A stretch of 39,385 nucleotides of DNA. Source: a virus. Its lineage: Duplodnaviria > Heunggongvirae > Uroviricota > Caudoviricetes. Numbering within the stretch: position 1 is the stretch's first letter; each line of letters starts with the position of its first letter. The translations under genes and the position numbers were made by a program. The notes below the pieces were generated by a model. The model did not search any database. It was not told where the DNA came from and saw only the letters and a program-made list of their open reading frames with translations. The DNA is taken from the IMG/VR virus record IMGVR_UViG_2534681978_000021. One strand, given 5' to 3'. Below, piece after piece: positions 12,352 to 28,847 of this stretch.

Positions 12352-14392
12352 TCACATCCAGTCCGTGACCGGACGTGTCATCAATATCAATACTGCGAGC
12401 CTGCCACCCTTCCGGGGCAACCAGCTCCACACGGGCAGAGGCTTTTTGTACCGCCTGTCCACTGCTTTCATCATCACTGCCCCGTAATTTCTGCCAGGCT
12501 TCAGTCAGCCATCCCCCCAGATAGTTACCGAGATAGCTGCCCACCGTAGAACCAATGGCAATCCCCACAGGTCCGGCTGCCGCCCCCAGCGCACCACCGG
12601 CAATACTGCCTGCAAGAGAGCCGACCGCTTCTCCCTTGTCTGTGGCACTGGCGCTGCCATCCAGCAGAACCGGGGCTGCCATCGCGCCAGCCCACAGGGC
12701 ACCTCCACCCAGCCGGCCGGCCAGTCCACCGGCACTGCGGAAAAAGCCGGAGAAACGCCCCAGCCCCATGCGGCTACCGACAGACGAAAGTAACCCACCG
12801 GCGCGCCCCATCATGCGCCCCCAGAACCCTGCCCCACCAGAAGAGGGAGACGGTGGCACTGGGGACGGTGGCAGGGGGGGCGTGACCGGTCTTCCGCGCC
12901 CCGGTCCGCGTTTCCTGCGGCCCCGCCCCTGACGTCCGCCTGAGGATGTATCGGTCGCGCCGGTGCCGGACAGTCCTCCTGTGGGCCAGTTTGTTACAAG
13001 TACTGGCTGAACGGCTGCCGGATTTACCCCGGTAAGAAAGTTTATAAAACGTTGCCCTCGTCCCTGAGATGTGCCTGGTGGTGTTCCGGCCGGAGGAGAG
13101 CGCCGGAAAGGTGAGGTCAGGAAGGCCGCCGCTGATAATCCGTATCCCAGCAATGCAGCACCCGGACGTATAATCCCCGTTCCGACAGCTCGCGCCATTT
13201 TCAGGGCACGGGTGGCGAGATACATGTACAGCAGGTATTTCGCGGCGGTCTGTGCCCCCTGACCAATGCGATCCAGCGCATCACCATAGCCCGCATCCCG
13301 CAGAGCCTGAAGCGTGTCGCGTACCTTTCTGATCGCCTGATAAAACCCTGTCACTGCATCACGGGCATACTCAAAGCCCTGGTTCATGGCTGATGCCGTG
13401 CTTTCCGCCAGGGAATGGTAACTGCCATCAGATTTGGCACTGTCAACCCATGAAAGAAATCCCCTGAGATTACCCTTCAGTTTTTCAAATGGCCCACTGT
13501 CCATCACATCCCGGGCAAACTGGTCCCAGACGTCACCCATCATGGCCGTCAGGCCACTCCAGGAATTCATTGCGTCCTTTTGTGCTCCCCTGGCCTGTTC
13601 CGCCAGCGTCTGAAATAACAGGCGAATACTGTCCGGCCCAAGCAGCCCTTTTTCACCAAGTTTTCTGACCACTTTCTGGTCCACACCCAGACGATCAGCC
13701 AGCACGCGGTAGGCATTAATGCCGTAGGTGGCAAGAATATTTGCATCCGCCGCCTGAATACTGCCTCTTGCATACATCTGTTTCAGTTGCAGGGATGCCC
13801 CCTGTGCATCGGACAGTGACCAGCCGCCCACGGCACCCTGATCCTGAAGCATGGTGACAAAATTTCGGGCCTCCCTGTCACTCATACCAAAGCCCAGACT
13901 GGACGTATATTCCTGCATGACGCCAGCCAGCCCCCAGGTGGTTTCCTTCGCATTCTGTATTGCCCACCTGCGGACATCATCAGTTTTCGCCCGATCCCCT
14001 TTGTAAAGGGAGTTCAGGCGAATCATATAGGTTTCCATCTCCGCTGCCGGGCGAATAAATCCCCGGTTAAAGCCATATACAGCAGCACCACCGGCCAGCA
14101 TTCCGTAAAGATTGCTGATCCGCCCGATGGTGCCGGTAATACTGCCCTGAAGACGGTCAAAATCAGAAGTGACATGGCGGATACTGCCCCGCACCCCGGC
14201 CAGCGTGCGCTGCATCCTGCTTCCGAGTACATCTGTTTCCTGCCCGGCACGGCGGGCAGCATTTCCCAGGCCACCCAGCCCCGCCTGGCCGGAGCGTGAG
14301 AATGCCCCCAGCTCCTGTGACCACTGGCGGGATTTGGCTGAGATATTGCCGAGCAAATCAACTATCAGAGATGCTCTGAGATTTCGGGCCAT
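12317..14392 (-). CDS. tail tape measure protein
   Basis: 691 aa with long Gly/Ala/Pro-rich low-complexity C-terminal half; position after tube/chaperone genes. Confidence 0.7.
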   Translation of the reverse strand: MARNLRASLIVDLLGNISAKSRQWSQELGAFSRSGQAGLGGLGNAARRAGQETDVLGSRMQRTLAGVRGSIRHVTSDFDRLQGSITGTIGRISNLYGMLAGGAAVYGFNRGFIRPAAEMETYMIRLNSLYKGDRAKTDDVRRWAIQNAKETTWGLAGVMQEYTSSLGFGMSDREARNFVTMLQDQGAVGGWSLSDAQGASLQLKQMYARGSIQAADANILATYGINAYRVLADRLGVDQKVVRKLGEKGLLGPDSIRLLFQTLAEQARGAQKDAMNSWSGLTAMMGDVWDQFARDVMDSGPFEKLKGNLRGFLSWVDSAKSDGSYHSLAESTASAMNQGFEYARDAVTGFYQAIRKVRDTLQALRDAGYGDALDRIGQGAQTAAKYLLYMYLATRALKMARAVGTGIIRPGAALLGYGLSAAAFLTSPFRRSPPAGTPPGTSQGRGQRFINFLTGVNPAAVQPVLVTNWPTGGLSGTGATDTSSGGRQGRGRRKRGPGRGRPVTPPLPPSPVPPSPSSGGAGFWGRMMGRAGGLLSSVGSRMGLGRFSGFFRSAGGLAGRLGGGALWAGAMAAPVLLDGSASATDKGEAVGSLAGSIAGGALGAAAGPVGIAIGSTVGSYLGNYLGGWLTEAWQKLRGSDDESSGQAVQKASARVELVAPEGWQARSIDIDDTSGHGLDVNVWNGGNYGLW

Positions 14393-14518
14393 ACTTACTG
14401 CTTCGTTCTGATGATTTTTTCTGTCTGTCGGCAGTGCCGGTAAAGTTGCGACAGGGGGAGGTTAAGCGCCCATTCCGGACCGCTTTTTGTCACCATCCCT
14501 AGGATAATTGCCGCTTCT

Positions 14519-14995
14519 TCAATCTGATCCCGACACTGCGCCTGATCGCCCCCGGTCAGCTGCCAGCTTTCCGGCAAGCGCGGTATCCAGCAGGCTGACC
14601 GCTGCCATCAGGCGGGAGAGATCGCGCTCGCTTAACTGTCCAATCTGACGGGGTGACAACGGACCTTCAATGTCTCCCACTGCGGCAATCTGACGGCGCA
14701 GCAGTGCAACACCGCGTAACGACGGAGACGCTATCAGCATCGGGCCATTGTTTGTCTCCACCACGCGCTCGGCTTCTGCTTCTGCGTCAATACTGTCTTT
14801 CGCTGTCAGTTCCCGGAACGTGACACGATATTCACGGGTCTCACCAAACGGCAGACCATCAAGCAGATCCACATATCCCTTTGCCAGTTGCTCTGTCAGC
14901 CCGGCAGTGCGTGGATCAGCCCCCTCAAGTGCTTCCCGGATTGCCTCCATCACGGCTGCCTCGGAAACTGCCGTTTTTTTCTTACGTGTGGTCAT
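14519..14995 (-). CDS. tail assembly protein (Mu gp41 position)
   Basis: ORF between tube and tape measure; start chosen at ATG with AGGA RBS (MTTRKKK...). Confidence 0.5.
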   Translation of the reverse strand: MTTRKKKTAVSEAAVMEAIREALEGADPRTAGLTEQLAKGYVDLLDGLPFGETREYRVTFRELTAKDSIDAEAEAERVVETNNGPMLIASPSLRGVALLRRQIAAVGDIEGPLSPRQIGQLSERDLSRLMAAVSLLDTALAGKLAADRGRSGAVSGSD

Positions 14996-15009
14996 TTTAT
15001 TTTTCCTGA

Positions 15010-15375
15010 TCACTGAACACGGGTACTGGAGGCGCTGGCGAACTTCACGGAGATCTCCCCGCCACCGTCAAGCGAGGCCGGTTCACTGCTCCAGGCCTTC
15101 GTCATCATGTGGACTTCACCGGTATCGGCCACGAACTCAATCGTGACCGCAGTCCAGGTGTTGATTTCATCGGCAGCCGGTGAACCTTCTCCGCCAGCCG
15201 GAAATTTACAGTCCAGCGTCGCCTCACGGGGTTTCTCGCGATAGCCGTAGACTTTCGCGCCTTTCACCACTTCACGCTCAAAGCCGGACGGGGAGAACGT
15301 GGCTCCCTCAAGGGTGGCGTACTCCTGTCCGTTCACACGGATGGTGGCCGTGCCCTGATACTGTTTTCCGCTCAT
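15010..15375 (-). CDS. tail tube protein
   Basis: 121 aa immediately downstream of sheath gene; GAGGTAAGG RBS. Confidence 0.55.
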   Translation of the reverse strand: MSGKQYQGTATIRVNGQEYATLEGATFSPSGFEREVVKGAKVYGYREKPREATLDCKFPAGGEGSPAADEINTWTAVTIEFVADTGEVHMMTKAWSSEPASLDGGGEISVKFASASSTRVQ

Positions 15376-15383
15376 GCCTTACC

Positions 15384-16454
15384 TCACAAAATGAAACGGA
15401 TCTGCGCGGCCATGAAGCGGAACTGGTTAACCAGATCCGGTGTACACATCACATCCAGACGGTTACGGTCTTTTGTGTTGCGCTCCACGAGCAGATTCTT
15501 TTTAAAGGTGTCCAGATTTTCGACCAGTCCCAGATCCACCCATTCTTCCCCCAGTGCAATCAGCTGGAGCGTCATAATCTCCGGCGTCACGATATTCTGA
15601 CCGGGCCGGACGGGAGTACCGTTATCGGCCAGTTTGTGGCGCGGGAAACGCTGCGTGATAAAGGTGCGCAGAGAATAACGCAGATATGACAGGGTGTAGA
15701 TGGTTTCCACATCCAGATAGCTGGGATCGCTTTCGCCGTATGCATTCTGACGGTACATCGTCACCTGACGTTCAATCTGCACCACATCAGCGGCCGCGAC
15801 GGTCACCGTGGACATGCCGGTATAAAGCAGGCTGTTTCGTTCTTCCCGCGTCAGACGAGCCGGTGCTTCAGGTGCCATACGGGCAGGCAGCGCCAGTGTC
15901 TGTAATGGTCGGGCCGGATCCGTTGACAGGGAGGGCGCACAGACCGCACAAATGGAGGCCGCCCAGACATAATCCGGCTCTGGTGCTTTAGGAATAGAAG
16001 TGCAGGTAAACAGGAAGTCATTACGGGATTCACCAAAACTGGTTGCCGTACCGAAGGTGCCGGTATGCGCCATCCAGACCATACCGTCCGACATTTTTAC
16101 CGGTCCCCAGCGTTTCAGCAGTTCATCCGCCAGAATTTTGAGATTTGCCGCATCCTTATAGGGCATGACGATGTAGTTGTACTGACGATTCCCCATCCCT
16201 GAGACGCTACGGGTGATATCGGGGTTTGTTGCCTTCTGTGTTGGCGCGACGAGCTCCAGCGTAAGACCGGCCGGTGTAGTTTCACCGTCATAATAGTTCA
16301 CCCGTAAATCATGAGCTGAGCATTCACCGATAAAGCGGGCGTTAACCCCCATGCTGCCTTTAAGTCCTTCAGCATTATCACCACTGACTTCAGCTGCGAT
16401 AGCAGTGAATGGCGCATCAGTGTCAGCGTTAATGACCTTAACCAGCTCTTCCAC
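15384..16454 (-). CDS. tail sheath protein, C-terminal portion (gene interrupted by a frameshift)
   Basis: 356-aa ORF continuing the sheath gene after a frame change; listed start is GTG. Confidence 0.7.
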   Translation of the reverse strand: MEELVKVINADTDAPFTAIAAEVSGDNAEGLKGSMGVNARFIGECSAHDLRVNYYDGETTPAGLTLELVAPTQKATNPDITRSVSGMGNRQYNYIVMPYKDAANLKILADELLKRWGPVKMSDGMVWMAHTGTFGTATSFGESRNDFLFTCTSIPKAPEPDYVWAASICAVCAPSLSTDPARPLQTLALPARMAPEAPARLTREERNSLLYTGMSTVTVAAADVVQIERQVTMYRQNAYGESDPSYLDVETIYTLSYLRYSLRTFITQRFPRHKLADNGTPVRPGQNIVTPEIMTLQLIALGEEWVDLGLVENLDTFKKNLLVERNTKDRNRLDVMCTPDLVNQFRFMAAQIRFIL

Positions 16455-16885
16455 AAGCTCTTTACCTTTTTCCCCTTACTGACGGGCAGGAGGTAACGGC
16501 GACCGCCGATGTAAACACTTAATACCCCGTCTGCCAATGCTGTTCCAATGATATTCATCACGCATGCCCTGGACTGACCTGTTCCAGCCCCCTGTGCAAT
16601 GGCATATAACTCTGTGTCAGGGTTAATGGCGATAAATTCCTCTACCATCAGTGCAATCATGGAACCTCGCCCCCAGAGTTCTCTTGCTTGTGAAGCTCGG
16701 GTAATACGTACTGGTACATCAAGCTGACCGCGCCCCTGAATGGTAGTGTCTTTCATTGCAGCCTGACCAAACAACAGTACCGCCTGACGCTGTGGTGGAG
16801 TGCCGGTCACGGCCATTGAATTATTGATTTCAATCTGTACCAGCGGAATGCGATTGTTATCGCCGATATAATCAAAGTTAATCAT
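16298..16885 (-). CDS. tail sheath protein, N-terminal portion (frameshifted; residues after about 16470 are out of frame)
   Basis: 195-aa ORF with AAGGGGA RBS; together with 15384..16454 gives a sheath-sized protein of about 500 aa. Confidence 0.7.
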   Translation of the reverse strand: MINFDYIGDNNRIPLVQIEINNSMAVTGTPPQRQAVLLFGQAAMKDTTIQGRGQLDVPVRITRASQARELWGRGSMIALMVEEFIAINPDTELYAIAQGAGTGQSRACVMNIIGTALADGVLSVYIGGRRYLLPVSKGKKVKSLWKSWLRSLTLTLMRHSLLSQLKSVVIMLKDLKAAWGLTPALSVNAQLMIYG

Positions 16886-17163
16886 CAGGACGTCCCCTTA
16901 TCTGATGCTGCGGTTTTTTCAGCCACCGCCGCAGTTTTTTCTGCTACCGCTCCCGCTGGTTTTGCAGCCTCGCCGGTATTAGCAGTTGTGGCAGCCGGGG
17001 CAGGCTCCGCCGTTTTATCCACCACAATGACGTCGCCATCATTAAGACGGCGGCACCAGAACGGGGTGAAGGGTTTCTCTTCACCGTCCTGTGAGAGCGG
17101 AGTCATCGTGTCGGGATCGCGAATCAGGCATCCCGGCGCAGGTTTAATAAAAATGGTTGTCAT
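16885..17163 (-). CDS. small tail-region protein (Mu gp38 position)
   Basis: 92-aa ORF, synteny. Confidence 0.45.
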   Translation of the reverse strand: MTTIFIKPAPGCLIRDPDTMTPLSQDGEEKPFTPFWCRRLNDGDVIVVDKTAEPAPAATTANTGEAAKPAGAVAEKTAAVAEKTAASDKGTS

Positions 17164-17166
17164 CTG

Positions 17167-17730
17167 TTATTCCTCTGACGGTCCGGCGTTTTCACCGGCG
17201 GCAGTTGCACCAGGCAGACGGATGTGTGCCTTAAACTCCGGCGTGCCTTCCGGTTCGGTAAAGGTTTCGTAATGGCGCAGGAAATCATCCAGCGAGCTGA
17301 TATCCGTCAGCGGGTCGATCATTTCCTCGCATGAGAAATACAGGGCGTACATCACGGCACCGCTGCCTGCCTGCGTTTCGGTGTAACCGTTGACCGCCTT
17401 TTCAAAGTAAAGCGGTGAGGTTTTTTCTGCTCTGAAGCCGTCCAGCACGGTAATCAGGCGGGCCACAATCTGATAAAGCCCGGGACGGCTGACCTCACGG
17501 CCATTGAGCATGTCGCCGATGACGTAGAACACCCAGTGACTGACCAGACGCCCACGGGTACGCCCTTCACCGGCACCCAGCCAGGCAACATAGATAGCCG
17601 GGGCGTTAATCAGCATGGTGCGCAGTACGCTGTCGCTCCAGTCGCCGGGATGTGTGTCAACAGACACCAGTTCATTCCCGAAATACTCACGGATACGGGC
17701 GATGTACGCCTGCTCGGTTTCCGTAATCAT
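17167..17730 (-). CDS. head-tail joining/tail completion protein (Mu gp37 position)
   Basis: 187 aa, synteny. Confidence 0.5.
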   Translation of the reverse strand: MITETEQAYIARIREYFGNELVSVDTHPGDWSDSVLRTMLINAPAIYVAWLGAGEGRTRGRLVSHWVFYVIGDMLNGREVSRPGLYQIVARLITVLDGFRAEKTSPLYFEKAVNGYTETQAGSGAVMYALYFSCEEMIDPLTDISSLDDFLRHYETFTEPEGTPEFKAHIRLPGATAAGENAGPSEE

Positions 17731-18146
17731 ATAAAGCCCTTCTGGTTGCGCCCGAACACCGCCGCATCAGACTGCACCTGCGGTAAATCCCCGGATTCAG
17801 GGGCCGCACCGTCTGTATCCACGCCGACCGGCACGTTACCGTTCATGACATCTTTCAGCCAGGCCAGCGCCTCACGGTAACGGTCACGCGCCTGATCGGA
17901 TGCCCGCTGATCGCACAGGTAATAAAAGGCAATCGTGCAGCAATGCTGAACAAGGACCGCCGGAACCACCGCCAGCGGCAGCGTGTAACGGGAAGACAGA
18001 TAGCTGTCGATAAGGGCAGACGCGTCCGTCAGTGCCCGGTTCAGCTTGCGCGTGTCCGGTTCATCCGAACGGGGCACGGCCAGTAATGGCCTGAGCAAAT
18101 CCTCGCGGTAACGTGCCCGCATATCGGTTTCGGTGGCGTAATTCAT
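17727..18146 (-). CDS. head-tail connector protein (Mu gp36 position)
   Basis: 139 aa, synteny. Confidence 0.5.
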   Translation of the reverse strand: MNYATETDMRARYREDLLRPLLAVPRSDEPDTRKLNRALTDASALIDSYLSSRYTLPLAVVPAVLVQHCCTIAFYYLCDQRASDQARDRYREALAWLKDVMNGNVPVGVDTDGAAPESGDLPQVQSDAAVFGRNQKGFI

Positions 18147-18502
18147 GCGCGCGCCTTTTTCGCCTGTCTGGCGTTATTGCCGGTCTTTTTCCGGGGAGCA
18201 TCCTGTACGGTTTCGGCTTCGGCTAAATCTGCACCGGTCTCTGCATGAACCACACCCGCCACGGCTCCCGCATCATCACCAGGCGTCTGTAGTATTCGTA
18301 CAGTGAGGCATGGCTCCGCTTCCAGTCGGGCAAGCTGCTCCGGGGTGACGTCAACCTGCTGGCGTCCCCGCATGAACAGGAACCCCGCACGACGAAAATG
18401 CGTACGACTGCAACGCACTTCTGCCAGTACCGTGACAGGACTGTCACCACTGACCTGAAGGCCTGAATCATCTGTTGCTGCCACAGTGTGATGTTCATTC
18501 AT
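18143..18502 (-). CDS. head completion protein (Mu gp35 position)
   Basis: 119 aa, synteny. Confidence 0.45.
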   Translation of the reverse strand: MNEHHTVAATDDSGLQVSGDSPVTVLAEVRCSRTHFRRAGFLFMRGRQQVDVTPEQLARLEAEPCLTVRILQTPGDDAGAVAGVVHAETGADLAEAETVQDAPRKKTGNNARQAKKARA

Positions 18503-18545
18503 ATTTGCCCTCCGCAGGGGCCGGGCCGTAAGCCCGGCTCACCGT

Positions 18546-19289
18546 TTACAGATAATCCGCGACAACCAGCTCCAGCTTGCCCTTCATCTCGTTAGAGACT
18601 GTGGCGTTACCGTCTGCGAACAGCTCGCGCTCCAGCAGCTGCACCGCCTGTTTTTCCAGCGAGGTGGGGACAACAATATGGGTGGGTTTGATGCCGAGTT
18701 TGCGGCCACCGTCAGCCTTAAAGTCACGCATGGCTGACCAGCCGTGCCACAGCGCATCCAGCGTCAGCGGTGACTGCATCATGTAGGCCATCTGCCAGAA
18801 GCCGTAGCCCACATTGCGACGGGCGGAAGCACCGAACACAAACTCGTTATCAGTAAACGCACGGCCTTCATCGACTTTTGTCTGGGCAACCAGTTCGGCC
18901 TTGCGGCGATCCTGATAAATCAGCGGTTTTACCGCGCGGGAGCAGTCAAGCAGATACCAGGCCGGGCCGCTGTAATCCACCTGTGCACCGACAGAGCCGG
19001 TTTTTGCCACAAACATATTGCTGACCATCTGTGCATCACCGGAGCCATCCACTTTGGGGTAAACAGGGTGTTCGGTATCAAAGAAGTTCTGGCCGTCATA
19101 GCAGGCCGCATTCAGACCATCACGCAGTGCAGCAAAGACCAGTTCATCCGGTTGTGCCGCCGCAGCGCGCCCCATCTCCTGGAACAACGGGGAGTAGATG
19201 CCAAGATTGTCGTCTTCAAAGTCATCGCGGCTAATGGCAACGGTGCCTTCAAAGGTTTTGTTCACGATGGCGTAGCCATAGGCTTTCAT
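18546..19289 (-). CDS. major capsid protein, C-terminal portion (gene split by frameshift)
   Basis: 247-aa ORF; its frame is already open upstream of the listed start (…QFPQFREWIGSRVIEK-MKAYGY…). Confidence 0.65.
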   Translation of the reverse strand: MKAYGYAIVNKTFEGTVAISRDDFEDDNLGIYSPLFQEMGRAAAAQPDELVFAALRDGLNAACYDGQNFFDTEHPVYPKVDGSGDAQMVSNMFVAKTGSVGAQVDYSGPAWYLLDCSRAVKPLIYQDRRKAELVAQTKVDEGRAFTDNEFVFGASARRNVGYGFWQMAYMMQSPLTLDALWHGWSAMRDFKADGGRKLGIKPTHIVVPTSLEKQAVQLLERELFADGNATVSNEMKGKLELVVADYL

Positions 19290-19492
19290 CTTCTCGATGA
19301 CGCGGGAGCCGATCCACTCACGGAACTGCGGGAACTGCCCAGCCAGCCGTAGGTGTTGGATTTCGACGTGGACGGTACGGTCATCGCAATTTTCTGGTAC
19401 TGAGACGGAGCCATGGACATCCCGGCCTGAAAATCAGAACGGTAGCCCGTCATCAGGGCGGTGATCATCGCCGGTGTGATCGGGGTAGGCAT
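19286..19492 (-). CDS. major capsid protein, N-terminal portion (frameshifted)
   Basis: 68-aa ORF starting immediately after the protease/scaffold gene; C-terminal residues (SSRSSVSGSAPASSRR) look like out-of-frame translation. Confidence 0.6.
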   Translation of the reverse strand: MPTPITPAMITALMTGYRSDFQAGMSMAPSQYQKIAMTVPSTSKSNTYGWLGSSRSSVSGSAPASSRR

Positions 19493-20616
19493 TATTGCAT
19501 TTCCTCTTTCATTTTCAGGAACTCGGCTTCGGTTTTACCCAGCAGATGGGCGGCGGCGATATCTTCAGCCGACAGCGCAGCGGTGGCGGTCTTTTTATCC
19601 GGCACGGTTACGGTGTCGGTCTGAAGAGTGGTCAGAGCCGCAACCGGCTGGCGGGCGTCAAGCTGTGCAGAAAGTGCCGCAACACCAATCTGTTGTCCGA
19701 GTCCTTCCATGTATCCGCGTTCGCTTTTGAAAATGCGTCCTTCGGACTCGGCCTTATCCAGCAACTGCTCCAGCGTGGTGCTGCCGTGTTGTGCCGACAA
19801 CGCGACATATTCGGTACGCAGGGCGTTATACGTCTCAACGGGCACGTATTTCGTCAGATCAATAGTGCCGCCAGTTGGTGTGCCTTTTGCGGTTTCCAGC
19901 TCTGCCGACAGGCTGGCAACCTGCGTTTTCAGGGTGTCGTGCGCATCCGCACGGGTTTTGATCCCGGTAAGGGCAGACAGCGCCGCCGTGCCCAGTTCCG
20001 GTGTAAATTCGTCACCGTCGGCCACGGTCAGACCGAGCGCCGTCAGCAACTGGCGTAATTGCTCATTCATGGAGGTGTCCTTTAAAGGAGGGTTTAAGGC
20101 GTTATAAAGGTCATCCGCCGACAGTGCGGCGACAGGATTCATGCCAGTCAGACCGGGGTCACCGGTAATAGCCAGCATCCGAAGCTCAACAGGTTCACCG
20201 GTGATTTCGTCATAACCAATCACCGGGGAAAACCAGGGAAATTCGTTATTGCGCAGGTGTTCAATGGCCGGAGGGTTCCAGTCCGGACGCACTTCAAAAC
20301 CCCGCTCTTCACTGAAGCGGAAGTTTTCCGGTGAGGCCATGACAAAACCGGCAGCCGGTGCCGGATGCCCCTTAATCAGGGTCTGGTGGTTGTAGTCAAT
20401 TTTTACCGGCTGATTGAGCGCCACAACCCGGGATACCATGCGCTCAACGGCCGCATGGTTAATCAGCCAGCCTTCCGCCGGTTTTTCCGGGCGACCGTCA
20501 CGGGCCTTTACCCGACCGGCTGGCATGATCTGACACCAGTCACCGTCCCCGTCTGCGGACAGGCTGATGGCATTCAGAATGGCATAAGCAAGTTTGGGCG
20601 TGTTTTTCGTCTTCAT
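19492..20616 (-). CDS. head maturation protease/scaffold protein (Mu I-like)
   Basis: 374 aa, position between G-like gene and capsid gene. Confidence 0.7.
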   Translation of the reverse strand: MKTKNTPKLAYAILNAISLSADGDGDWCQIMPAGRVKARDGRPEKPAEGWLINHAAVERMVSRVVALNQPVKIDYNHQTLIKGHPAPAAGFVMASPENFRFSEERGFEVRPDWNPPAIEHLRNNEFPWFSPVIGYDEITGEPVELRMLAITGDPGLTGMNPVAALSADDLYNALNPPLKDTSMNEQLRQLLTALGLTVADGDEFTPELGTAALSALTGIKTRADAHDTLKTQVASLSAELETAKGTPTGGTIDLTKYVPVETYNALRTEYVALSAQHGSTTLEQLLDKAESEGRIFKSERGYMEGLGQQIGVAALSAQLDARQPVAALTTLQTDTVTVPDKKTATAALSAEDIAAAHLLGKTEAEFLKMKEEMQ

Positions 20617-20793
20617 TCCGGCAGCATAAGCCGGTGTTTTTCGGGGCCGGTTTTGCGGGACTTCAGAAAGTGCTGACAGGGGAAAAATGAGAAAGGCGCT
20701 TCACGCAGATTTTAAAGCCCGTTAAATACAGGTTAGAAAATCACGACACGCGCCTGAAGAGGGTAAGGCAATGCGTTTGTATACCTTAAACCA
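20617..20793 (-). promoter_or_regulatory. intergenic region upstream of the I-like gene; candidate late promoter
   Basis: 177-bp non-coding gap in an otherwise tightly packed operon, at the position of Mu late promoter P_I. Confidence 0.3.
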
Positions 20794-21267
20794 TTACGGC
20801 GTTTCTGTGGCCTTTTTAAAGCGTTTTCTGATTTCGTCCATGATCTCCTGTTCTGCCACCTGATCAAAGCCCATATACGGACGTGCGCCAATGGCCGCCG
20901 GTCCCGGTGGCATACCAGGCAGGCCACCCCACTGATGAATGGCCGCATAAGGTTCATTTGATCCAATCAGCGCCCAGGTATCGCCATAATCCGTGGTCAG
21001 GCGGCGGGCCAGATCGCCGTTCAGTGTCAGGATTTTGCCGGGCGTGTATCCCTTACGGGTACGCCACTTGCGGTAAGGATCTGACCAGTCATGCCAGCGT
21101 TCGCCGTCCGGCTCTTTTTCCTGTTCAAACGCCATTTCTGACGATGACAGAAGACTCTCCGCCACACTGCGGGCCAGGTCTTTTCCGCCGCCCACAAACT
21201 GAAGCCGGGCAAACACCCGCTGGAGACGCGTAACGTCAACAACGACAGCGGCATCAATGGATGACAT
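20794..21267 (-). CDS. virion morphogenesis protein (Mu G/gp31 position)
   Basis: 157 aa, synteny. Confidence 0.55.
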   Translation of the reverse strand: MSSIDAAVVVDVTRLQRVFARLQFVGGGKDLARSVAESLLSSSEMAFEQEKEPDGERWHDWSDPYRKWRTRKGYTPGKILTLNGDLARRLTTDYGDTWALIGSNEPYAAIHQWGGLPGMPPGPAAIGARPYMGFDQVAEQEIMDEIRKRFKKATETP

Positions 21268-21307
21268 ATTGCCTCCGCATAAAGGATGAATATAAAATAA
21301 ACAGGCG

Positions 21308-21387
21308 GTCAGTGTACGCTTAACTGGTAAAGTCGGTGCCTGCCTCCGGGTGGATCATGTATGCGGGTTCGACCCCCGCCACTGACC
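21308..21387 (+). other. tRNA-like sequence (7-bp acceptor stem plus canonical-looking T-arm; anticodon arm not canonical)
   Basis: GTCAGTG (21308-21314) pairs with CACTGAC (21380-21386); GCGGG-TTCGACC-CCCGC T-arm at 21363-21379; D-loop-like TAACTGGTAA. Confidence 0.25.
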
Positions 21388-21388
21388 G

Positions 21389-22720
21389 TTAATCAATTTG
21401 TCCTTCCAGCACCTCAAGCATTCCGCCCCGGATATCCGATTTCAGCTTATCCATATTGATAACCCGGTAAGCATTCACAATCACATCCAGTTTGTCGGGC
21501 TGACGTTTCAGACTGTACGGTGCATTAACGGCAATCTGCACACTGCCATCCTGATTTTCCACGATATACATCAGATTGTTGTGCCGTTTGTCCCACAGTA
21601 CCGCTTTTGGCCTTGCCAGCATTGCCGGTAAGCGCCCGAAGTCCTCCGGCGTCAGAGCGATGCCGTCATTCTGATGTTTCACACTGTCCGCATGGAGCAC
21701 ATTTTTACCGCTCATCGCCAGCAGGCGGGCCGGTGGCGTTCCCGTCCGGCTTTCCACTGCCTGCGCAATGCTTTCAGTCATAAAGCCCAGCGTGCGGATA
21801 TCGTTACCACCTCGCCGGGTCTGCATGATGTTTTTTGCCCAGATGCGGAACGCCAGCTGCCGCTCCGGGCTGTTGTTCATCTCCTGAACCACCATTTCCC
21901 GTAACGCCGGGCTTTTCACCTCGATCAGTTTGCGGATCAGCGCCTGGTCTGTGCCGAACGCTGCCGAGCCGGGGTTATATGACCAGCCCACATCCGGTGT
22001 CATGGTTCTGGTGCCATCTGAATATGTGGTCACCGGCATTTCTCTGACTTCTCCGGTCTGTTTATCCACGCCAGCCTCAACATTGCGGGTGGAGAGATGA
22101 TCCTCACCGGATGAAACGGATAACCCCATTGCATCCAGACGGGCCTGAGACAATGGCCGCACACGGCAGCGGCAGTTCCAGCCATTGGGCGGGTAGTGTG
22201 TTTTCCAGAACGGATCGTCATAGCGGAATACCAGACCGTTAAGGGCGGAATGCGACGGGCGGGTACGGCTGTCCATGACCGCCACATACTGCCAGAACGG
22301 ATGCGTGTCCGTGTTGTTCATCATCTGCGTGTAACGCCCGGCATTGTAAGCCACACGGGTGTTCACGTTGTAAATCAGCGCCAGACGACGGGGACTGCCC
22401 AGCTGCACTTCTTCCGCGTTACCGTCGCTGTCCACCACAATCTGCTTTCCCCACCATCCCAGCTTTTGCAGGCGTGGCGTCAGCGTGCGGATAAATTCTT
22501 TCTGTGAAATCCCCTCATCAATGGCCCGCTGCACTTCGGCCTGTAATGTGGTCACCACATCCAGCCGTGCCGTTTTTGCTGCCGTGAATGAGCGGGCATG
22601 AACATCCGCGGCTGTTTCGAACCAGTTCCAGCTGATATGCGCCCCTTTGGCGCGGAAGTATGCCACCGTCTCTTTTGAGGGAAGCGTGGCGGCATAACCT
22701 AAATCAATCTCCTGAGCCAT
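21389..22720 (-). CDS. head morphogenesis protein (Mu F-like)
   Basis: 443 aa directly downstream of portal gene. Confidence 0.7.
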   Translation of the reverse strand: MAQEIDLGYAATLPSKETVAYFRAKGAHISWNWFETAADVHARSFTAAKTARLDVVTTLQAEVQRAIDEGISQKEFIRTLTPRLQKLGWWGKQIVVDSDGNAEEVQLGSPRRLALIYNVNTRVAYNAGRYTQMMNNTDTHPFWQYVAVMDSRTRPSHSALNGLVFRYDDPFWKTHYPPNGWNCRCRVRPLSQARLDAMGLSVSSGEDHLSTRNVEAGVDKQTGEVREMPVTTYSDGTRTMTPDVGWSYNPGSAAFGTDQALIRKLIEVKSPALREMVVQEMNNSPERQLAFRIWAKNIMQTRRGGNDIRTLGFMTESIAQAVESRTGTPPARLLAMSGKNVLHADSVKHQNDGIALTPEDFGRLPAMLARPKAVLWDKRHNNLMYIVENQDGSVQIAVNAPYSLKRQPDKLDVIVNAYRVINMDKLKSDIRGGMLEVLEGQID

Positions 22721-23147
22721 CCAGCATCCCCTTCATTTCCGCAGCAAACATGGCATCACTGAGCAGCGTCATCAGGCGGGAATCATCCATTTCACGATAA
22801 AGGGCAGGCAGGTCTGCCAGCGCATCCGCCAGCCCCCGCGTTCTGATGGCATCAATGACCGGCTCCAGTACCGGGTCGATGGCCTCCTGTAAGCGGCGGG
22901 CAGGCACCGCGTCCCCCATATCATCCAGTTCATCACGCGGCGTGCTTTTCGCTTCCGGCAGTCTGGCTGACAGCGCCGTCTGCTCTGTTTTTTCCTGTTT
23001 TTCCGGTGGTGTTTCCCTGTCGGTCTGAGCCGGTTCATTGCCACTCTGACGGACACGGAATATGGCTTCACCGGGCGTGGGCTGCGGAATACCGGTCTGC
23101 TCACGTATCCAGGGATCAGAAATATCCATCCCCGTACTGAGCTGCAT
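22704..23147 (-). CDS. portal protein C-terminal acidic region, or separate translationally coupled small gene
   Basis: ATG at 23147 overlaps the upstream stop as TGATG; acidic sequence. Confidence 0.5.
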   Translation of the reverse strand: MQLSTGMDISDPWIREQTGIPQPTPGEAIFRVRQSGNEPAQTDRETPPEKQEKTEQTALSARLPEAKSTPRDELDDMGDAVPARRLQEAIDPVLEPVIDAIRTRGLADALADLPALYREMDDSRLMTLLSDAMFAAEMKGMLDGSGD

Positions 23148-23422
23148 CACCGCACTGGTGATTTGGTGATATCACCTGGTTCTTTTGTCTGGAAGCAGAT
23201 ACGTGGCAGACGGCGGATATCAATAGTGTGCGTGGTGTTCAGGGCGTACAGCGGATACACCAGATCGCGGTTCAGGGTTGCAGCCAGCTGTCGTAAATCA
23301 GAATCCCTGATTTCCCGGCGCACCTCGTTATGTACCTCACCCAGTGAGCGCGCGCCTTTGTCTCCGGCTTCCGTGGTCAGCGTGCCGCCGAGTATTGCTT
23401 TGGAGATGGAACGCTCCCCCAC
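23147..23422 (-). CDS. portal protein, middle fragment (frameshifted)
   Basis: frame continues the portal ORF if one G is added to the G5 run (plus-strand C5 at 23416-23420). Confidence 0.6.
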   Translation of the reverse strand: MGERSISKAILGGTLTTEAGDKGARSLGEVHNEVRREIRDSDLRQLAATLNRDLVYPLYALNTTHTIDIRRLPRICFQTKEPGDITKSPVR

Positions 23423-24291
23423 GAAATCATGGTTTCAAACGGATCGGCCTGACCGTTCGCTGCCGCCTGAAACTCCAGCGACATCCCGGCCGGGATGATC
23501 CCGCCTGTACGTCGCCCGATATCCATCACCGCCCGCATCAGGGCACTTTTCTGCTCCGGTGTTGCCCCGGACGGGTATTTCCCGACCTTCATCGGCAGGC
23601 CGTACACCTCCAGAAATTCCGCCAGATCGCGCACGGAATAGTTTTTGAAAATGAACGGCCAGATAAGCGTCCGGACAAGCCCGGTTGCACCACCGTAACC
23701 GGTGCGTGAACGCGACTGATGCACTATCCAGCCAAAGGGCTGAAACGCCACCCCGGAATGGCTGCCGTCACGCAGCCGCAGTTCGCTCAAATCATCCGGG
23801 TTAAGGCAGAAATGCCCGCTGTCACGCCAGCGGATGGCGCGGATGATGTGCATTTTACCGAGCATCCCGTGCTCAATTTCCATGCAGGAATAGCCCTTCA
23901 GGATGGCATCCGTGGCGTCAAACAGCATGGCATCAAACCAGTCTGCGGAATGCAGATATTCGTCGAGCATTTCCGCGTCCTTTTTCTCATTCGCGCTGGC
24001 GTTCGGTGGCGGCTCAATACTCCATGGCACCCCCTGAATGGCAAGACGTCGCTTGCCCAGCTCCGCAAAAAGGTGGGTGTCCTTTTCTTCAATATCAGCG
24101 GCCAGATCGGACTGGGCAATCAGATCGCCACGTTCAGCCCCGCGAAGGCACTGCGCCGCCCGGTTCGGGGTGATACCCGAAGCCGGATGTTCAATATAAC
24201 GGCTGGCAATCTGCGGAATATCCAGCGCGGCACTCTGCATCTCCGGGTCAAAGGAGAAAGGTTTTCCGTCAGTATCAATGATGCGTCCCAC
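23377..24291 (-). CDS. portal protein, N-terminal fragment
   Basis: 304 aa starting at the terminase stop; terminase-portal-F order. Confidence 0.65.
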   Translation of the reverse strand: MGRIIDTDGKPFSFDPEMQSAALDIPQIASRYIEHPASGITPNRAAQCLRGAERGDLIAQSDLAADIEEKDTHLFAELGKRRLAIQGVPWSIEPPPNASANEKKDAEMLDEYLHSADWFDAMLFDATDAILKGYSCMEIEHGMLGKMHIIRAIRWRDSGHFCLNPDDLSELRLRDGSHSGVAFQPFGWIVHQSRSRTGYGGATGLVRTLIWPFIFKNYSVRDLAEFLEVYGLPMKVGKYPSGATPEQKSALMRAVMDIGRRTGGIIPAGMSLEFQAAANGQADPFETMISWGSVPSPKQYSAAR

Positions 24292-25955
24292 TACCAGCCC
24301 CCCCGATCAAATTCATGATATGCCTCATCGTCATCACGATAACCGCCCTCCATTGCCCGCGACCGCTCCGGTAGCGCCTGACAGGCTGATTCATCCAGGA
24401 TGAAACCCTCCATGTATGACGCCCGGTTTGCCATACAGAGTGCCACGGCAAAATCACCATGGCGGCGGGCGTTCGCAGCCGTTGCGTTCTGGTCCTTCGT
24501 GCGCCCCTTGTCGATTTGCGGGATACCATTCACCACCTTCACATGGCGCAAATCATCAAGCGTGGTCTGATGGCGGGCGACGAGGATATTCTGATCTTCA
24601 AACTCGGCTTTCAGTTTTGGCATCCACTCGCCGTACCACTTCGGCGACAACATCACGCAGTCGATGATGTCCGGGCCAAAGGCCAGCAGTGCGGCCTCTG
24701 CCAGATAGCCGCCGTTACCGGTGGCGTCGAACGCCGCACCGACCAGCGCCGGAACGCGGGTCAGGATGTACATCATCACCTGTTCCTGCTGGGCATACGG
24801 CAGGTTGCGCAGCTCCACGCGAAACACCTCGCGCTTTGCCAGGAGTTCGGTGATTTCCAGCAGCACAAAGCAGGACAGGTCACCGGTGCGGGCAAAGTCT
24901 TCCCCGAAGCTGAAGCGGGAACGGGGATTTAATTTCTCTGTAAGCGGTTTTAAATGTTCTTCACACCAGGTTAAAACTTCCGATTCACGCAGCCATGCGG
25001 CACGGCTGATGAAGTCGTCCGGGGCTTCAAACGTCAGAATCGGGATGTCACGAATCATCGCCATTTCAATAAGCGCGTGAGGAATATAGGCACCGCCGGA
25101 TTTTTTCGGGATACAGCCGTATTCCTCGTCGGCATCCTCACGGGTCGGGGCGTTTTTGTAGAGATCATCACGCCATTTCTGCTCGCTTTCCGGTGACCAT
25201 TCCTGATCGGTGACGTAACAGATACGACGGTACAGCCCGTCCGCAATGGCATCATCCAGGGTTATGCGGTGGACGCTGTAATCCTTGCGCCCCTCGCGGG
25301 CTTCCTGAATGTACTGATTAAACAGATTATCGACGCCGTTATGCGTGGAAATAATGCGCACGCGTGCGCCCCACATGGTAAGCGCCATTGCCGCCTTGAG
25401 AAGCTCATCCAGTGACTCGTGGAACGCGGCTTCATCAATCACCACATCCCCCTGAAGACCGCGCAGGTTTGACGGACGGGAAGACAATGCCTGAATTTTG
25501 AATCCACTGTTCGGAAAGCGGATCATGTAGGTCAGAATTTCTTCTTTTTTATCCCGATCCCAGAATGTCTGCTCATACACATCAGCATCTGCCAGCTGGT
25601 TAAAGGCACGGGAGAACAGCGCGCAGGCAGAAATATATTCCAGCGCCATCTCCTGTTTTGACCCCACATAAAACACATTACGGCCACCACGACGCTTAGG
25701 CTTTGCGGCGGTAATGACGTTACGCCCGGCTTCCGCCCAGGTAAGCCCGGTGCGTCGGGATTTCTCCGCGATGCAGACCTGACTTTCATCTGCAAACCAG
25801 CGGGCCTGATAATCCAGAAACACCGGCATATCACCGGGCAAATCAAGGCTGTCCGGCACATCCACGCCCAGCAGGGCTTTTTCACCGGACAGATCAATTT
25901 TGCGGGGAGGTGTCATTTGTATCAGTGAAGGAGACTTTTCTTTGGCTTTGTTCAT
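24291..25955 (-). CDS. terminase large subunit
   Basis: 554 aa, position upstream of portal. Confidence 0.75.
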   Translation of the reverse strand: MNKAKEKSPSLIQMTPPRKIDLSGEKALLGVDVPDSLDLPGDMPVFLDYQARWFADESQVCIAEKSRRTGLTWAEAGRNVITAAKPKRRGGRNVFYVGSKQEMALEYISACALFSRAFNQLADADVYEQTFWDRDKKEEILTYMIRFPNSGFKIQALSSRPSNLRGLQGDVVIDEAAFHESLDELLKAAMALTMWGARVRIISTHNGVDNLFNQYIQEAREGRKDYSVHRITLDDAIADGLYRRICYVTDQEWSPESEQKWRDDLYKNAPTREDADEEYGCIPKKSGGAYIPHALIEMAMIRDIPILTFEAPDDFISRAAWLRESEVLTWCEEHLKPLTEKLNPRSRFSFGEDFARTGDLSCFVLLEITELLAKREVFRVELRNLPYAQQEQVMMYILTRVPALVGAAFDATGNGGYLAEAALLAFGPDIIDCVMLSPKWYGEWMPKLKAEFEDQNILVARHQTTLDDLRHVKVVNGIPQIDKGRTKDQNATAANARRHGDFAVALCMANRASYMEGFILDESACQALPERSRAMEGGYRDDDEAYHEFDRGGW

Positions 25956-26203
25956 CAGGCTTTACCTGTCAGAATGCTTTTGATTCGGAACTCAAGCTCT
26001 TCAGTCATCACGTCCACGCCACTCAACTCATCAGTGACAGCCCCTGCCAGCAGCGAATGCAGTTGTTCCAGGGATATTTCCCCGGCAATGCTGAGTTCAG
26101 TCAACTCACGACACGCTTTTATGGTTTCAGGAGGTAACTGTGTTGCAAGACTGAATGCCTTCTGATGAGCACTGCTCATCAGTGAGCGGTTATCTGTTAC
26201 CAC
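25955..26203 (-). CDS. small protein carrying a diverged copy of the small-terminase C-terminal tail
   Basis: 82 aa; C-terminus AVTDELSGVDVMTEELEFRIKSILTGKA parallels AVTDELRGVDGMSEQIEFRIRQMLLGKA of the upstream gene. Confidence 0.4.
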   Translation of the reverse strand: MVTDNRSLMSSAHQKAFSLATQLPPETIKACRELTELSIAGEISLEQLHSLLAGAVTDELSGVDVMTEELEFRIKSILTGKA

Positions 26204-26213
26204 GATTCACCTC

Positions 26214-26795
26214 CTACGCCTTACCAAGCAGCATCTGCCTGATACGGAATTCTATCTGCTCGCTCATGCCATCCACGCCGCGCAACTCGTCGGTGACGGC
26301 GTTCGCCATCTCTTCAGCAAATGCGGCCCGGATTTCTTTTTCACGCTTAATGCTGCGCTCGGCGGCACTTTCCGCACGCTGTGCCGACAGGAGGATGTCC
26401 TTAATAAGGCGCATATCCACATCGCTGTCGCTGTTCAGGGATTCGGTGGCGGCACGCAGACGGCGGTACATCAGGGCACGGGACATCTCCAGAATCAGTG
26501 CCGTGGTTTCACCGGTCGGCTTATCCCCCAGTTCGGCCATCATGGCTTTTGTCTGCTCGCGTAAATCACGCAGATTACGGGCAATCAGCTCATTACGGGA
26601 GGCTTCCCGGCTGATGGCCGCCGGTGAAAGCTGCTGCTCTTCCGGCAGGCCTGCCTCACGGATCAGACGGTTGATTTCCTCGCGGATCTGGACCTGCGTC
26701 AGGCGTTTTTCACGCAGCATTTCCAGCAGCGGCTTACGGATGCTGTCGGGGAGCAAATCCACCTTGCGTACACGGCCACGCGTCGGCTTATCCAT
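26214..26795 (-). CDS. terminase small subunit-like protein (Mu gp27 position)
   Basis: 193 aa, charged coiled-coil-like sequence upstream of large terminase. Confidence 0.55.
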   Translation of the reverse strand: MDKPTRGRVRKVDLLPDSIRKPLLEMLREKRLTQVQIREEINRLIREAGLPEEQQLSPAAISREASRNELIARNLRDLREQTKAMMAELGDKPTGETTALILEMSRALMYRRLRAATESLNSDSDVDMRLIKDILLSAQRAESAAERSIKREKEIRAAFAEEMANAVTDELRGVDGMSEQIEFRIRQMLLGKA

Positions 26796-26797
26796 CG

Positions 26798-27088
26798 TTA
26801 CCCCCTTGCGCGTGGTTTCTTCACACCCGGAACAGTGGCACGACCTTCCGCCACATCCTGACCCCGGCCGGTCAGTTCAGCGATGAAATAACCGTTAACA
26901 AGCGTGCGCTTACGCACCAGTCCCTGCTCAGCAAGCCAGGCAATGTGGGTGTGAACGGTGTCGCGGGACACGCGGTGGCCGTAATCATCCAGGCAGTCCT
27001 GAAGCACGGATTCGCCCAGTTCGCCGTTGTAATCCGCCAGCGACCGCAGAATGACAAGACGCTGATCTTCAGTAATGAAATCACTCAT
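26798..27088 (-). CDS. hypothetical protein (Mu gp26 position)
   Basis: 96 aa, synteny. Confidence 0.45.
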   Translation of the reverse strand: MSDFITEDQRLVILRSLADYNGELGESVLQDCLDDYGHRVSRDTVHTHIAWLAEQGLVRKRTLVNGYFIAELTGRGQDVAEGRATVPGVKKPRARG

Positions 27089-27392
27089 TGTGTTTTTTCC
27101 TTACAGCCTGCTCCAGCAGCAGTTCGTTCTGATGAGAGACGGATTTCAGGGTGGCGTTGGTGGCCTTTAGCTCACCGCGCAGGGTGGTGATTTCGATATT
27201 GAGTCTGTTCACCTCCTGCTGCGTGGGCAGGCCGGAAATCCGGCTCTCCACCCGCTCAACCCGATCGGAGAGTTTTTCAAAGGCCTCGCGGGGGACGAAG
27301 GTTTTGCGCATCAGCGCCATGAAGATCCCCCCGGCCGTGGCCGTTGCCGACAGGATCGGCACAACATAATCTTTAACGATGCTGACCCACAT
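27081..27392 (-). CDS. small membrane protein with coiled-coil C-terminus (Mu gp25 position; possible lysis accessory protein)
   Basis: N-terminal TM segment VVPILSATATAGGIFMALM, then heptad-like sequence. Confidence 0.5.
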   Translation of the reverse strand: MWVSIVKDYVVPILSATATAGGIFMALMRKTFVPREAFEKLSDRVERVESRISGLPTQQEVNRLNIEITTLRGELKATNATLKSVSHQNELLLEQAVRKKHNE

Positions 27393-27600
27393 GACCGGCC
27401 TCCATGATGTTCTGGCAGTTCACACAACGGATGGCATCCGGCACGGCAACCAGACGGGCAGCCGGAATATCACCCCCGCAGTCCGCGCATACACGCCTGC
27501 CCGGTGTCTCCGCCACCCGGCGCTTACGTGTCAGCCGGTCACAAAGGGCGCGTTCTGTTGCCCGCTCCATGACAGCCTGAGCACAATCTGAATCATCCAT
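27373..27600 (-). CDS. TraR/DksA-family C4 zinc-finger protein
   Basis: CADCGGDIP...CVNCQ; start chosen at MDDSD with AAGGAAAAAGG RBS. Confidence 0.65.
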   Translation of the reverse strand: MDDSDCAQAVMERATERALCDRLTRKRRVAETPGRRVCADCGGDIPAARLVAVPDAIRCVNCQNIMEAGHVGQHR

Positions 27601-27610
27601 ACCTTTTTCC

Positions 27611-27982
27611 TTACTTCGTCTTTCCTGCCGGAACAGCAGGCGTTCCGGCCATATCAGTAAATTCATGTTGTCGCCGCGCCTCCAGACGACGAATACTGGC
27701 CTTGTCCACGTTGCAGTTCTTGATCACCGCCAGCAGTTGCAGGTTGTAAGTGACCGATGCCCCAAACGTGAACGGCTCCGGCGCAGGAGGGACCAGGCAG
27801 TCAGCCAGCCATTCAGCGGGGATCGGAACCGGCTGCACAGGCACGTATTTCACAGACGGCCCGGCGCACCCGCTCAGCCACATCATCAGGCACAGGAACA
27901 GAGGCCGCAGGCACTGTTGCCAGCGACCGGCGGACAACGCTCTGCTGCTCCTCGCTGTGCTGAATGTTCTGTTGCTTTTCAT
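27611..27982 (-). CDS. outer-membrane spanin (lipoprotein), embedded in a second frame of the inner-spanin gene
   Basis: signal-peptide-like N-terminus ending in lipobox WLSGC, Pro-rich mature part. Confidence 0.5.
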   Translation of the reverse strand: MKSNRTFSTARSSRALSAGRWQQCLRPLFLCLMMWLSGCAGPSVKYVPVQPVPIPAEWLADCLVPPAPEPFTFGASVTYNLQLLAVIKNCNVDKASIRRLEARRQHEFTDMAGTPAVPAGKTK

Positions 27983-28334
27983 TCGTGGCCGCCTCACTGA
28001 TTTGTGAAATGAGGTGCAGGGTGTGCTGCTGATTTGCCAGCACCTGACGCACCTCATCCCGCTCACGCACAAGTACCTGATTATTGCCCTCAAGACGCTG
28101 CGTCTTCTGGTGCATTCCCCATATCGCGGCAACCAGTACGGCGATAATCCCCAGCGCCGCCATGCTCGCCCCGGCAATCAGGGCCGGTAAGGGATTGTTC
28201 ACCACAGCCACAGTGCCCCCCGCAGCGCCACAACGGCACATAACAGCGCAATCATGAGCGGTCGACAGAGCTGGTTCAGACTTTCGGCAAGTCGTAGCGA
28301 CATAACCATTCATCCGCCGAACGGCGGGCCTCAA
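27813..28334 (-). CDS. inner-membrane spanin (start uncertain, probably downstream of listed start)
   Basis: TM segment LPALIAGASMAALGIIAVLVAAIW followed by Gln/Glu-rich helical sequence; directly after endolysin. Confidence 0.5.
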   Translation of the reverse strand: MRPAVRRMNGYVATTCRKSEPALSTAHDCAVMCRCGAAGGTVAVVNNPLPALIAGASMAALGIIAVLVAAIWGMHQKTQRLEGNNQVLVRERDEVRQVLANQQHTLHLISQISEAATNEKQQNIQHSEEQQSVVRRSLATVPAASVPVPDDVAERVRRAVCEIRACAAGSDPR

Positions 28335-28776: not shown

Positions 28777-28847
28777 TGTTACGCTGTCTCATGGTGTTCT
28801 CTGAGCCAGCGTAACCGTGGAAAAAAGGGGGCAGGATTTGCGGAATA

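Follow-up and report, generated by a model that had tools for sequence, protein, structure and literature searches.

Probable homopolymer under-calling behind the split portal, capsid and sheath genes of a Mu-like Escherichia coli prophage

The 39,385-nt stretch of viral DNA analyzed here (IMGVR_UViG_2534681978_000021; hereafter the window) raises a simple question: are its portal, major capsid and tail sheath genes, each of which reads as two or three open reading frames, broken in the phage itself or only in its sequence record? The earlier note on this DNA ascribed the splits to 1-nt indels in short homopolymers, with sequencing or assembly error and early prophage decay as the two possible causes. 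Comparison with near-identical genomes supports such indels and strongly favors error: we infer that the frame breaks very probably have a technical cause, namely homopolymer under-calling in this assembly.

A Mu-like prophage in elfC

The prophage interrupts elfC, a host gene for a fimbrial usher, leaving host flanks at 1-80 and 39320-39385; the junctions were set by the empty site in NCTC11129. Where the junctions overlap, a 4-bp CTAA is the sole unambiguous part, as against the 5-bp target duplication of Mu-type transposition. Host elfC matches window positions 1-80 in 3,751 E. coli genomes. According to the annotation of E. coli FORC_069, which carries the identical element, the late genes are read from the minus strand, with transposase and repressor placed at the high-coordinate end. 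The RefSeq labels of that element (Mu transposase C-terminal domain protein, AAA ATPase, Gam, Mor family and Com family) suggest that the early and transposition functions typical of a Mu-like transposable phage (a MuA-type transposase, a MuB-type ATPase, Mor, Gam and Com) are all represented. The Mu-type late order was also found, running gp27, gp28, portal gp29, F, G, I protease and T, followed by L sheath, M tube and the tape measure protein, as traced by Pfam families along L005 (JH378063), the phage Mu map and collinear tblastn matches.

Escherichia phage Mu (NC_000929) shares this late-gene order and these Pfam families, and its proteins can be aligned over their entire length through the breaks in the window, at amino-acid identities of 66% (N-terminal part of the portal), 67% (T) and 53% (L). 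DNA similarity is confined to a stretch of ~600 nt. Judged on these alignments, the window prophage is a Mu-like lineage distinct from Mu. Neither ARAGORN nor Rfam detected an RNA in the window, which leaves the "tRNA-OTHER" annotated by PGAP in relatives unsupported here, and a literature search for a description of an O104-lineage Mu-like prophage returned nothing specific.

Table 1. Features of the window discussed in the text (fragments are open reading frames on the minus strand)
Feature	Position	Strand	Details
Mu-like transposable prophage	81..39319	-	Based on the annotation of the identical FORC_069 element and the NCTC11129 empty site
Host elfC homopolymer deletion	16..20	.	C5; C6 in FORC_069 and in 3,731/3,751 E. 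coli genomes
Tail sheath gene	15384..16885	-	N-terminal fragment 16298-16885 (195 aa), C-terminal fragment 15384-16454 (356 aa; frame open up to 16475); 500 aa with one base added
Sheath frame break	16467..16471	.	T5 run, then C4 at 16472-16475; T6 in complete genomes and viral contigs
Major head subunit gene (Mu-like gpT)	18546..19492	-	Fragments 19286-19492 (68 aa) and 18546-19289 (247 aa); 315 aa with one base added
Capsid frame break	19338..19340	.	C3 run; C4 in all relatives (FORC_069 alignment)
Portal gene (Portal_Mu / DUF935)	22704..24291	-	Fragments 23377-24291 (304 aa), 23147-23422 (91 aa) and 22704-23150 (148 aa); 529 aa with two bases added
First portal frame break	23416..23420	.	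C5 run; C6 in all relatives (FORC_069 alignment)
Second portal frame break	23162..23164	.	T3 run; T4 in all relatives (FORC_069 alignment)
Small early-region ORF	30133..30329	-	65 aa in FORC_069 (WP_001086885.1); frame-shifted after residue 46

Four frame breaks and their counterparts in relatives

Profile matches run across the splits: the Pfam Portal_Mu profile falls on consecutive portal fragments (profile positions 2-228, then 231-310) and the Mu-like_gpT profile on the two capsid fragments (2-44, then 60-289), while Phage_sheath_1 and Phage_sheath_1C both fall in the C-terminal sheath fragment. By tblastn, phage Mu gp29, T and L are collinear with the window, with frame switches at 23416-23419, 23162-23165, 19340 and 16454-16475. 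All four 1-nt breaks were confirmed at the places given in the earlier note. The portal gene is, as that note had it, one base short at a C5 run, which is C6 in the FORC_069 alignment; a second portal break, suspected near 23147, is real and could be placed at a nearby T run (T4 to T3). For the capsid gene, the downstream frame had been described as already open upstream of the split, and it is indeed open up to 19433, with the break at a C4 shortened to C3. The sheath split had been put across the T5/C4 tract at 16467-16475; this too was borne out, the missing base being one of the T run (T6 to T5). With two bases restored in the portal gene and one each in the capsid and sheath genes, the predicted proteins become identical to the FORC_069 CDS products WP_000532599.1, WP_001142988.1 and WP_000606778.1, respectively.

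All 39,385 nt of the window align with FORC_069 (39,391 nt), collinearly and without larger deletions, IS insertions or rearrangements. The two differ by one substitution and six 1-nt gaps, and every gap is a deletion in the window that cuts by one base a homopolymer of true length 3-6. Since the single substitution (26621) is also found in L005, the window has 0 private substitutions as against 5-6 private indels. Runs of at least 3 hold 17.7% of the bases, yet all 6 of the 6 indels lie in them, a placement that is not due to chance. FORC_069, aligned here over the full 39.4 kb, is one of six independent complete genomes (with NCCP15648, FORC_029, FORC_043, NCCP 13905 and NCCP 13983) that are otherwise identical to the window over 15000-25000: each has 4 extra bases there, and the portal, gpT and sheath genes are single intact CDSs. 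FORC_069 and NCCP15648 belong to the O104:H4 / ST678 lineage (PMC9423916). The elfC prophage of these lineage members, as seen in FORC_069, has the insertion site and gene order of the window, but at the four structural sites the six genomes carry the long alleles and the window the short ones.

Wider searches point the same way. A search of 5,426 complete E. coli genomes, together with 22 viral and metagenome contigs of independent origin, returned no copy of any of the four short structural alleles. Among those complete genomes, no exact match to the portal allele was found in any of 230 matching records (the best, at 99.4%, spans 323 nt for a 321-nt query), nor to the capsid allele in any of 229 (best match 98.5%, over a 66-nt span). 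The C6 at 23416 was found in all 12 metagenome contigs, the T4 at 23162 in 11 of 11, and the capsid C4 in 7 of 7 viral and metagenome contigs. A scan of species-representative genomes for either portal allele found nothing, and the portal and capsid fragment proteins have no entry in a set of ~15 billion proteins, which draws among other sources on assemblies of public read sets.

Two of the six deletions lie outside these genes. A small early ORF, in our tally the fifth broken prophage gene, is shifted by a G3 that reads as G2 at 30191-30192, and the host elfC sequence itself is one base short. The elfC C5 call is shared by 20 "complete" genomes of scattered distribution, among them NCTC11129, in which elfC is annotated as frameshifted and the essential gene mukB, within 20 kb, is marked as frameshifted as well; on these grounds the site is marked as a likely error hotspot. 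Because one deletion falls in host DNA and another in an unrelated small early gene, the process responsible is not specific to structural genes.

Probable sequencing or assembly error and its rivals

We suggest that six homopolymer runs were each recorded one base short, through either the sequencing chemistry or the consensus caller, and that four of these errors, two in the portal gene and one each in the capsid and sheath genes, would make each gene read as two or three ORFs. The true DNA would then most likely read T6, C4, T4 and C6 at these sites, encoding intact proteins of 500, 315 and 529 aa. Data from 454, Ion Torrent, early PacBio and unpolished nanopore sequencing typically show under-counting of this kind. 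Consensus errors on the 454, Ion Torrent, PacBio and nanopore platforms resemble the window in their single-base run deletions, their excess of indels over substitutions and the artificial pseudogenes that result, although the runs affected here are short (true lengths 3-6). Among long-read assembly errors, false deletions at homopolymers predominate (PMC12007338). Four features to be expected of an artefact are present: indels confined to homopolymers, indels far outnumbering substitutions, a spread beyond one class of gene or one element, and alleles that are not reproduced elsewhere. The exception is the sheath T5, which turned up in other assemblies of 2010-2012 but in no others; of these assemblies, two have further under-calls in this prophage.

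The pattern alone is not unique to sequencing error, since slipped-strand mutation in vivo is also targeted to homopolymers and biased toward deletion. The deletions could instead be real, the portal (twice), capsid, sheath and small early genes having been hit by slippage in a prophage that would now be cryptic and non-inducible; this might have happened in a transiently mismatch-repair-deficient background. The sequence leaves no doubt about the frame breaks themselves, and a decaying prophage would look like this, with several structural genes knocked out: broken essential morphogenesis genes are common to the window, as read, and to cryptic or defective E. coli prophages. Real decay of such prophages, however, also leaves its mark in substitutions, larger deletions and IS insertions, and related isolates inherit it. 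None of these accompaniments is found in the collinear window, and no relative shares its lesions. Homopolymers are natural slippage targets, and mutS-deficient lines do gain single-nucleotide indels in runs (PMC5854121), but the runs here are merely 3-6 nt, one deletion is in host DNA, and the short alleles are absent from all independent complete genomes and metagenome contigs examined. In mutation accumulation experiments, wild-type indels amount to about one fifth of base substitutions, and even in mutS-deficient lines they make up at most ~21% of events (PMC5854121); at a 21% share, 6 indels without a single substitution would have a probability of ~1e-4. The lack of any substitution private to the window thus makes real early decay unlikely, and we regard it as highly improbable. 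A sharper version, to which we give very little credence, would have an O104:H4-related strain silence its prophage very recently by a burst of slippage, for example in a transient mutator phase, with the CCTTTTTTCCCC sheath patch a natural recurrent hotspot across E. coli and Shigella prophages; portal, capsid and sheath would then have been lost before any substitution had built up.

The sheath site deserves separate treatment, because most of the breaks could be assembly errors while the one in the CCTTTTTTCCCC patch is a real allele that recurs in E. coli and Shigella. Apart from the window, the T5 allele was found only in L006, L007 and L008, drafts of 2010-2012 that comprise the S. sonnei 53G draft, DEC6D and a Logan assembly of SRR041667. 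The 195-aa N-terminal fragment occurs in prophage variants 94-96% identical to the window (L006, L008), and L008, a read-based Logan reassembly, keeps T5 though it corrects another run of the matching draft. L005, which we had at first taken to share the T5, proved on direct comparison to lack one base of the neighboring CC (CC to C), a separate deletion that happens to yield the same peptide. Because T5 recurs across assemblies, one of them built from reads, it could be a real recurrent allele instead of a systematic chemistry error. Against this, the carriers all come from 2010-2012 projects, and the draft assemblies L006 and L007 each have further homopolymer under-calls of their own in this prophage. 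T5 is found in none of 19 matching complete genomes (5,426 searched) and none of 10 IMG/VR contigs (all T6), and recurrence across unrelated prophage lineages would fit a context-specific chemistry error equally well. A real sheath allele among otherwise false breaks seems to us very unlikely.

Programmed recoding, by ribosomal frameshifting or transcriptional slippage at the runs, would restore full-length portal, capsid and sheath proteins from the sequence as it stands. The runs are homopolymeric, and programmed frameshifts are used in phage structural modules, for example in tail assembly chaperones. Selection, however, could not have set up four such sites with zero accompanying substitutions, and the split is not conserved: the genes are in a single frame in every relative, from the near-identical strains to phage Mu. 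We consider recoding barely conceivable. Nor did we find any homolog with a naturally split portal, capsid or sheath gene, an observation the earlier note had said would count against its reading; all relatives have single intact genes. A phase-variable contingency locus, in which a simple sequence repeat acts as a switch, was rejected as well, since the tracts are 3-6 nt and showed a single length throughout the complete genomes and the viral and metagenome contigs.

Consequences for the prophage and its source assembly

Homopolymer under-calling is an ordinary artefact and involves no new biology, but it matters for how this record is used. Six false deletions in 39 kb imply that the source assembly probably contains hundreds of similar artificial pseudogenes, and it needs polishing before any analysis of pseudogenes or of prophage integrity. 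Taken at face value, the frameshifts would have the prophage labeled defective. Judged against its near-identical relatives it is probably intact, and FORC_069 differs from it by only 6 bases and one substitution; on that reading, the repaired prophage would be structurally complete and potentially inducible, a complete transposable phage carried by an E. coli host related to O104:H4.

Frame breaks in the late genes

Positions 15384-24291, on the minus strand, are part of the late-gene module of the Mu-like prophage. Pieces of its genes map to successive stretches of single Pfam profiles: the portal pieces match Portal_Mu positions 2-228 and then 231-310, the capsid pieces match Mu-like_gpT positions 2-44 and then 60-289, and the C-terminal sheath piece carries Phage_sheath_1 and Phage_sheath_1C. 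Mu gp29, T and L (NC_000929) can be aligned to the window over their whole length, with frame switches at 23416-23419, 23162-23165, 19340 and 16454-16475. Because the Pfam pieces are consecutive and the Mu proteins switch frame at the break points, the earlier note was correct that the portal, capsid and sheath frames in the ORF list are broken; the second portal break that it had raised tentatively is borne out by the gp29 switch at 23162-23165 and the T4 to T3 deletion there.

ORF layout of the late-gene module and single-base deletions in the window
Feature	Position	Strand	Remark	Source
Terminase-size ORF	24291-25955	-		ORF list
Portal, three consecutive pieces	23377-24291, 23147-23422, 22704-23150	-		ORF list
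Mu F-like gene	21389-22720	-	next: G-like gene, protease	ORF list
Capsid, two pieces	19286-19492, 18546-19289	-		ORF list
Four small head and neck genes		-	between capsid and sheath pieces in list	ORF list
Sheath, two pieces	16298-16885, 15384-16454	-		ORF list
Sheath break	16467-16471		T6 to T5	global alignment to FORC_069
Capsid break	19338-19340		C4 to C3	global alignment to FORC_069
Portal break	23162-23164		T4 to T3	global alignment to FORC_069
Portal break	23416-23420		C6 to C5	global alignment to FORC_069
Extra deletion, host DNA	16-20		C6 to C5	full-length alignment to FORC_069
Extra deletion	30191-30192		G3 to G2	full-length alignment to FORC_069

Six complete E. coli genomes (FORC_069, NCCP15648, FORC_043, FORC_029, NCCP 13905 and NCCP 13983) are 100.0% identical to the window over 15000-25000 by megablast, with a span of 10,005 nt against the 10,001-nt query. 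In a global alignment of 14000-26000 to FORC_069, no base is substituted and the only differences are four gaps of 1 nt. Each of the three genes is a single intact CDS in FORC_069, TOE17 and JE86-ST05 (sheath, 1,503 nt; gpT, 948 nt; DUF935 portal, 1,590 nt). Once the four bases are restored in silico, the window's genes encode 500-, 315- and 529-aa proteins, respectively, which have no internal stops and are identical to the FORC_069 translations.

Over the full length of the window, we found one substitution relative to FORC_069 (26621) and six single-base gaps, all of them deletions on the window side. Runs of at least 3 hold only 17.7% of bases, yet all six indels fall inside such homopolymers. 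As the substitution is common to another strain (scaffold JH378063), the window has no private substitutions and five to six private indels. Judged against an elfC locus that lacks it, the prophage spans ~81-39319, and the deletion at 16-20 therefore lies in host DNA. That at 30191-30192 truncates a 65-aa early-region ORF (30133-30329, minus strand; WP_001086885.1 in FORC_069). This fifth frame-shifted prophage gene has two Cys pairs, the second of which is deleted by the shift.

Short alleles in other genomes and assemblies

The short alleles were looked for in 5,426 complete E. coli genomes, with short queries spanning each break. There, the sheath 65-mer had no exact match among the 19 genomes matched (best 98.5%, 66-nt span), none of 229 records matched by the capsid 65-mer reached 99%, and the best of 230 records for the 321-nt portal query (99.4%, 323-nt span) had both bases present. 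Scans of viral and metagenome contigs with patterns tolerant of either allele found sheath T6 in 10/10 IMG/VR contigs, portal C6 in 12/12 metagenome contigs and, on these same contigs, capsid C4 in 7/7 and portal T4 in 11/11. A collection of ~15 billion proteins contains neither the portal nor the capsid fragment proteins.

The N-terminal sheath fragment (195 aa) is recorded from four sources only: the Shigella sonnei 53G draft (ADUU01), E. coli DEC6D (AIFY01), scaffold JH378063 and the Logan assembly of SRR041667; DEC6B and S. sonnei 3226-85 yield a close variant. Two draft assemblies with the sheath T5 allele both contain further homopolymer under-calls inside this prophage (L006: C6 to C5 twice, T6 to T5 and T7 to T6; L007: G7 to G6, T7 to T6 and T6 to T5), and in JH378063 the deletion is another one (CC to C, next to the T6 run), which leaves the peptide unchanged through a synonymous codon. 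Given these other under-calls and the adjacent deletion, we regard the CCTTTTTTCCCC patch as a site of repeated miscalls in assemblies from 2010-2012, in preference to a real recurrent allele.

Cause of the breaks

Single-base indels are much rarer than substitutions in natural mutation. Mutation-accumulation experiments on two Vibrio species gave indels at about one fifth of the number of substitutions in wild type, and an indel share of 8-21% of events when mutS was deficient (PMC5854121). Real early decay of the prophage, the other cause that the earlier note had offered, would thus have to produce six indels and zero private substitutions where even mutS deficiency gives an indel share of at most 21%, at which the probability is ~1e-4; we consider it very unlikely. 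Slightly less so, although still improbable, is a mixed case in which the sheath allele alone is real: the 195-aa fragment is on record in other assemblies, but L006 and L007, sources of sheath T5, show other under-calls in this prophage. Programmed recoding is contradicted by homologs that are in frame in every case, and can practically be dismissed.

Most consensus errors of long-read and flow-based sequencing consist of bases falsely deleted in homopolymers (PMC12007338). This error profile, the absence of the short alleles elsewhere and the hit in host DNA favor under-calling of homopolymers in the source assembly, which would have produced the portal, capsid and sheath frame breaks. On this comparative evidence such a technical cause is very probably the best explanation, and of the two causes first proposed, sequencing or assembly error is favored over decay by the indel excess, the alleles absent elsewhere and the host-DNA deletion. 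The C5 form of elfC is also carried by scattered, unrelated strains, 20 of the 3,751 complete E. coli genomes, and in one of these, NCTC11129, both elfC and the essential gene mukB, at most 20 kb away, are annotated as frameshifted; the C6 to C5 change thus looks like a recurrent technical error hotspot in public "complete" genomes.

The restored prophage and its relatives

The prophage ends are TATAGCGCGG... and ...CCTGGTTATA; at the junctions in elfC (77-80 and 39320-39323) only a 4-bp overlap, CTAA, is unambiguous, 1 bp short of a clean target duplication of Mu type. The element is related to phage Mu but distinct from it: amino-acid identity is 53-67% for the portal, T and sheath proteins. 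Inverted repeats at 5343-5485 and 6554-6694 (~85% identity) adjoin a recombinase gene (~4710-5282), tail-fibre assembly genes and partial tail-fibre genes, and this region resembles an invertible host-range region of the Mu G-segment type. By the FORC_069 annotation, the late end also holds accessory cargo: a 695-aa DUF6645 protein (2569-4656, minus strand) and, at 209-1027 (minus strand), a Com-family regulator with a downstream ~245-aa gene in the mom position. RefSeq annotates a "tRNA-OTHER" between the G-like and F-like genes (21308-21387, plus strand) in FORC_069, TOE17 and JE86-ST05; ARAGORN and Rfam (gathering thresholds) found no RNA gene in the window, this site included.

Other public assemblies also contain frame-broken copies of this prophage family, with the breaks at other positions. 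In the 99% relative from JE86-ST05 (NZ_AP022815.1), the tape measure, G-like and F-like genes are themselves "frameshifted"; the breaks lie in short repeats (a C4 run cut to C3, and a 2-nt GA unit) at loci matching window positions 20927 and 22092-22093 and the tape measure gene.

FORC_069 belongs, with NCCP15648, to an O104:H4-related lineage (PMC9423916). Its prophage is annotated with a full Mu-type gene set: a repressor-region gene, transposase, ATPase, Gam, Mor and lysis genes; a terminase-size gene, portal, F, G, protease and T; and sheath, tube, tape measure, baseplate, tail fibre with invertase, and Com. Restoring the bases makes the window element equal to this prophage, and it should be treated as a Mu-like prophage that is probably intact.
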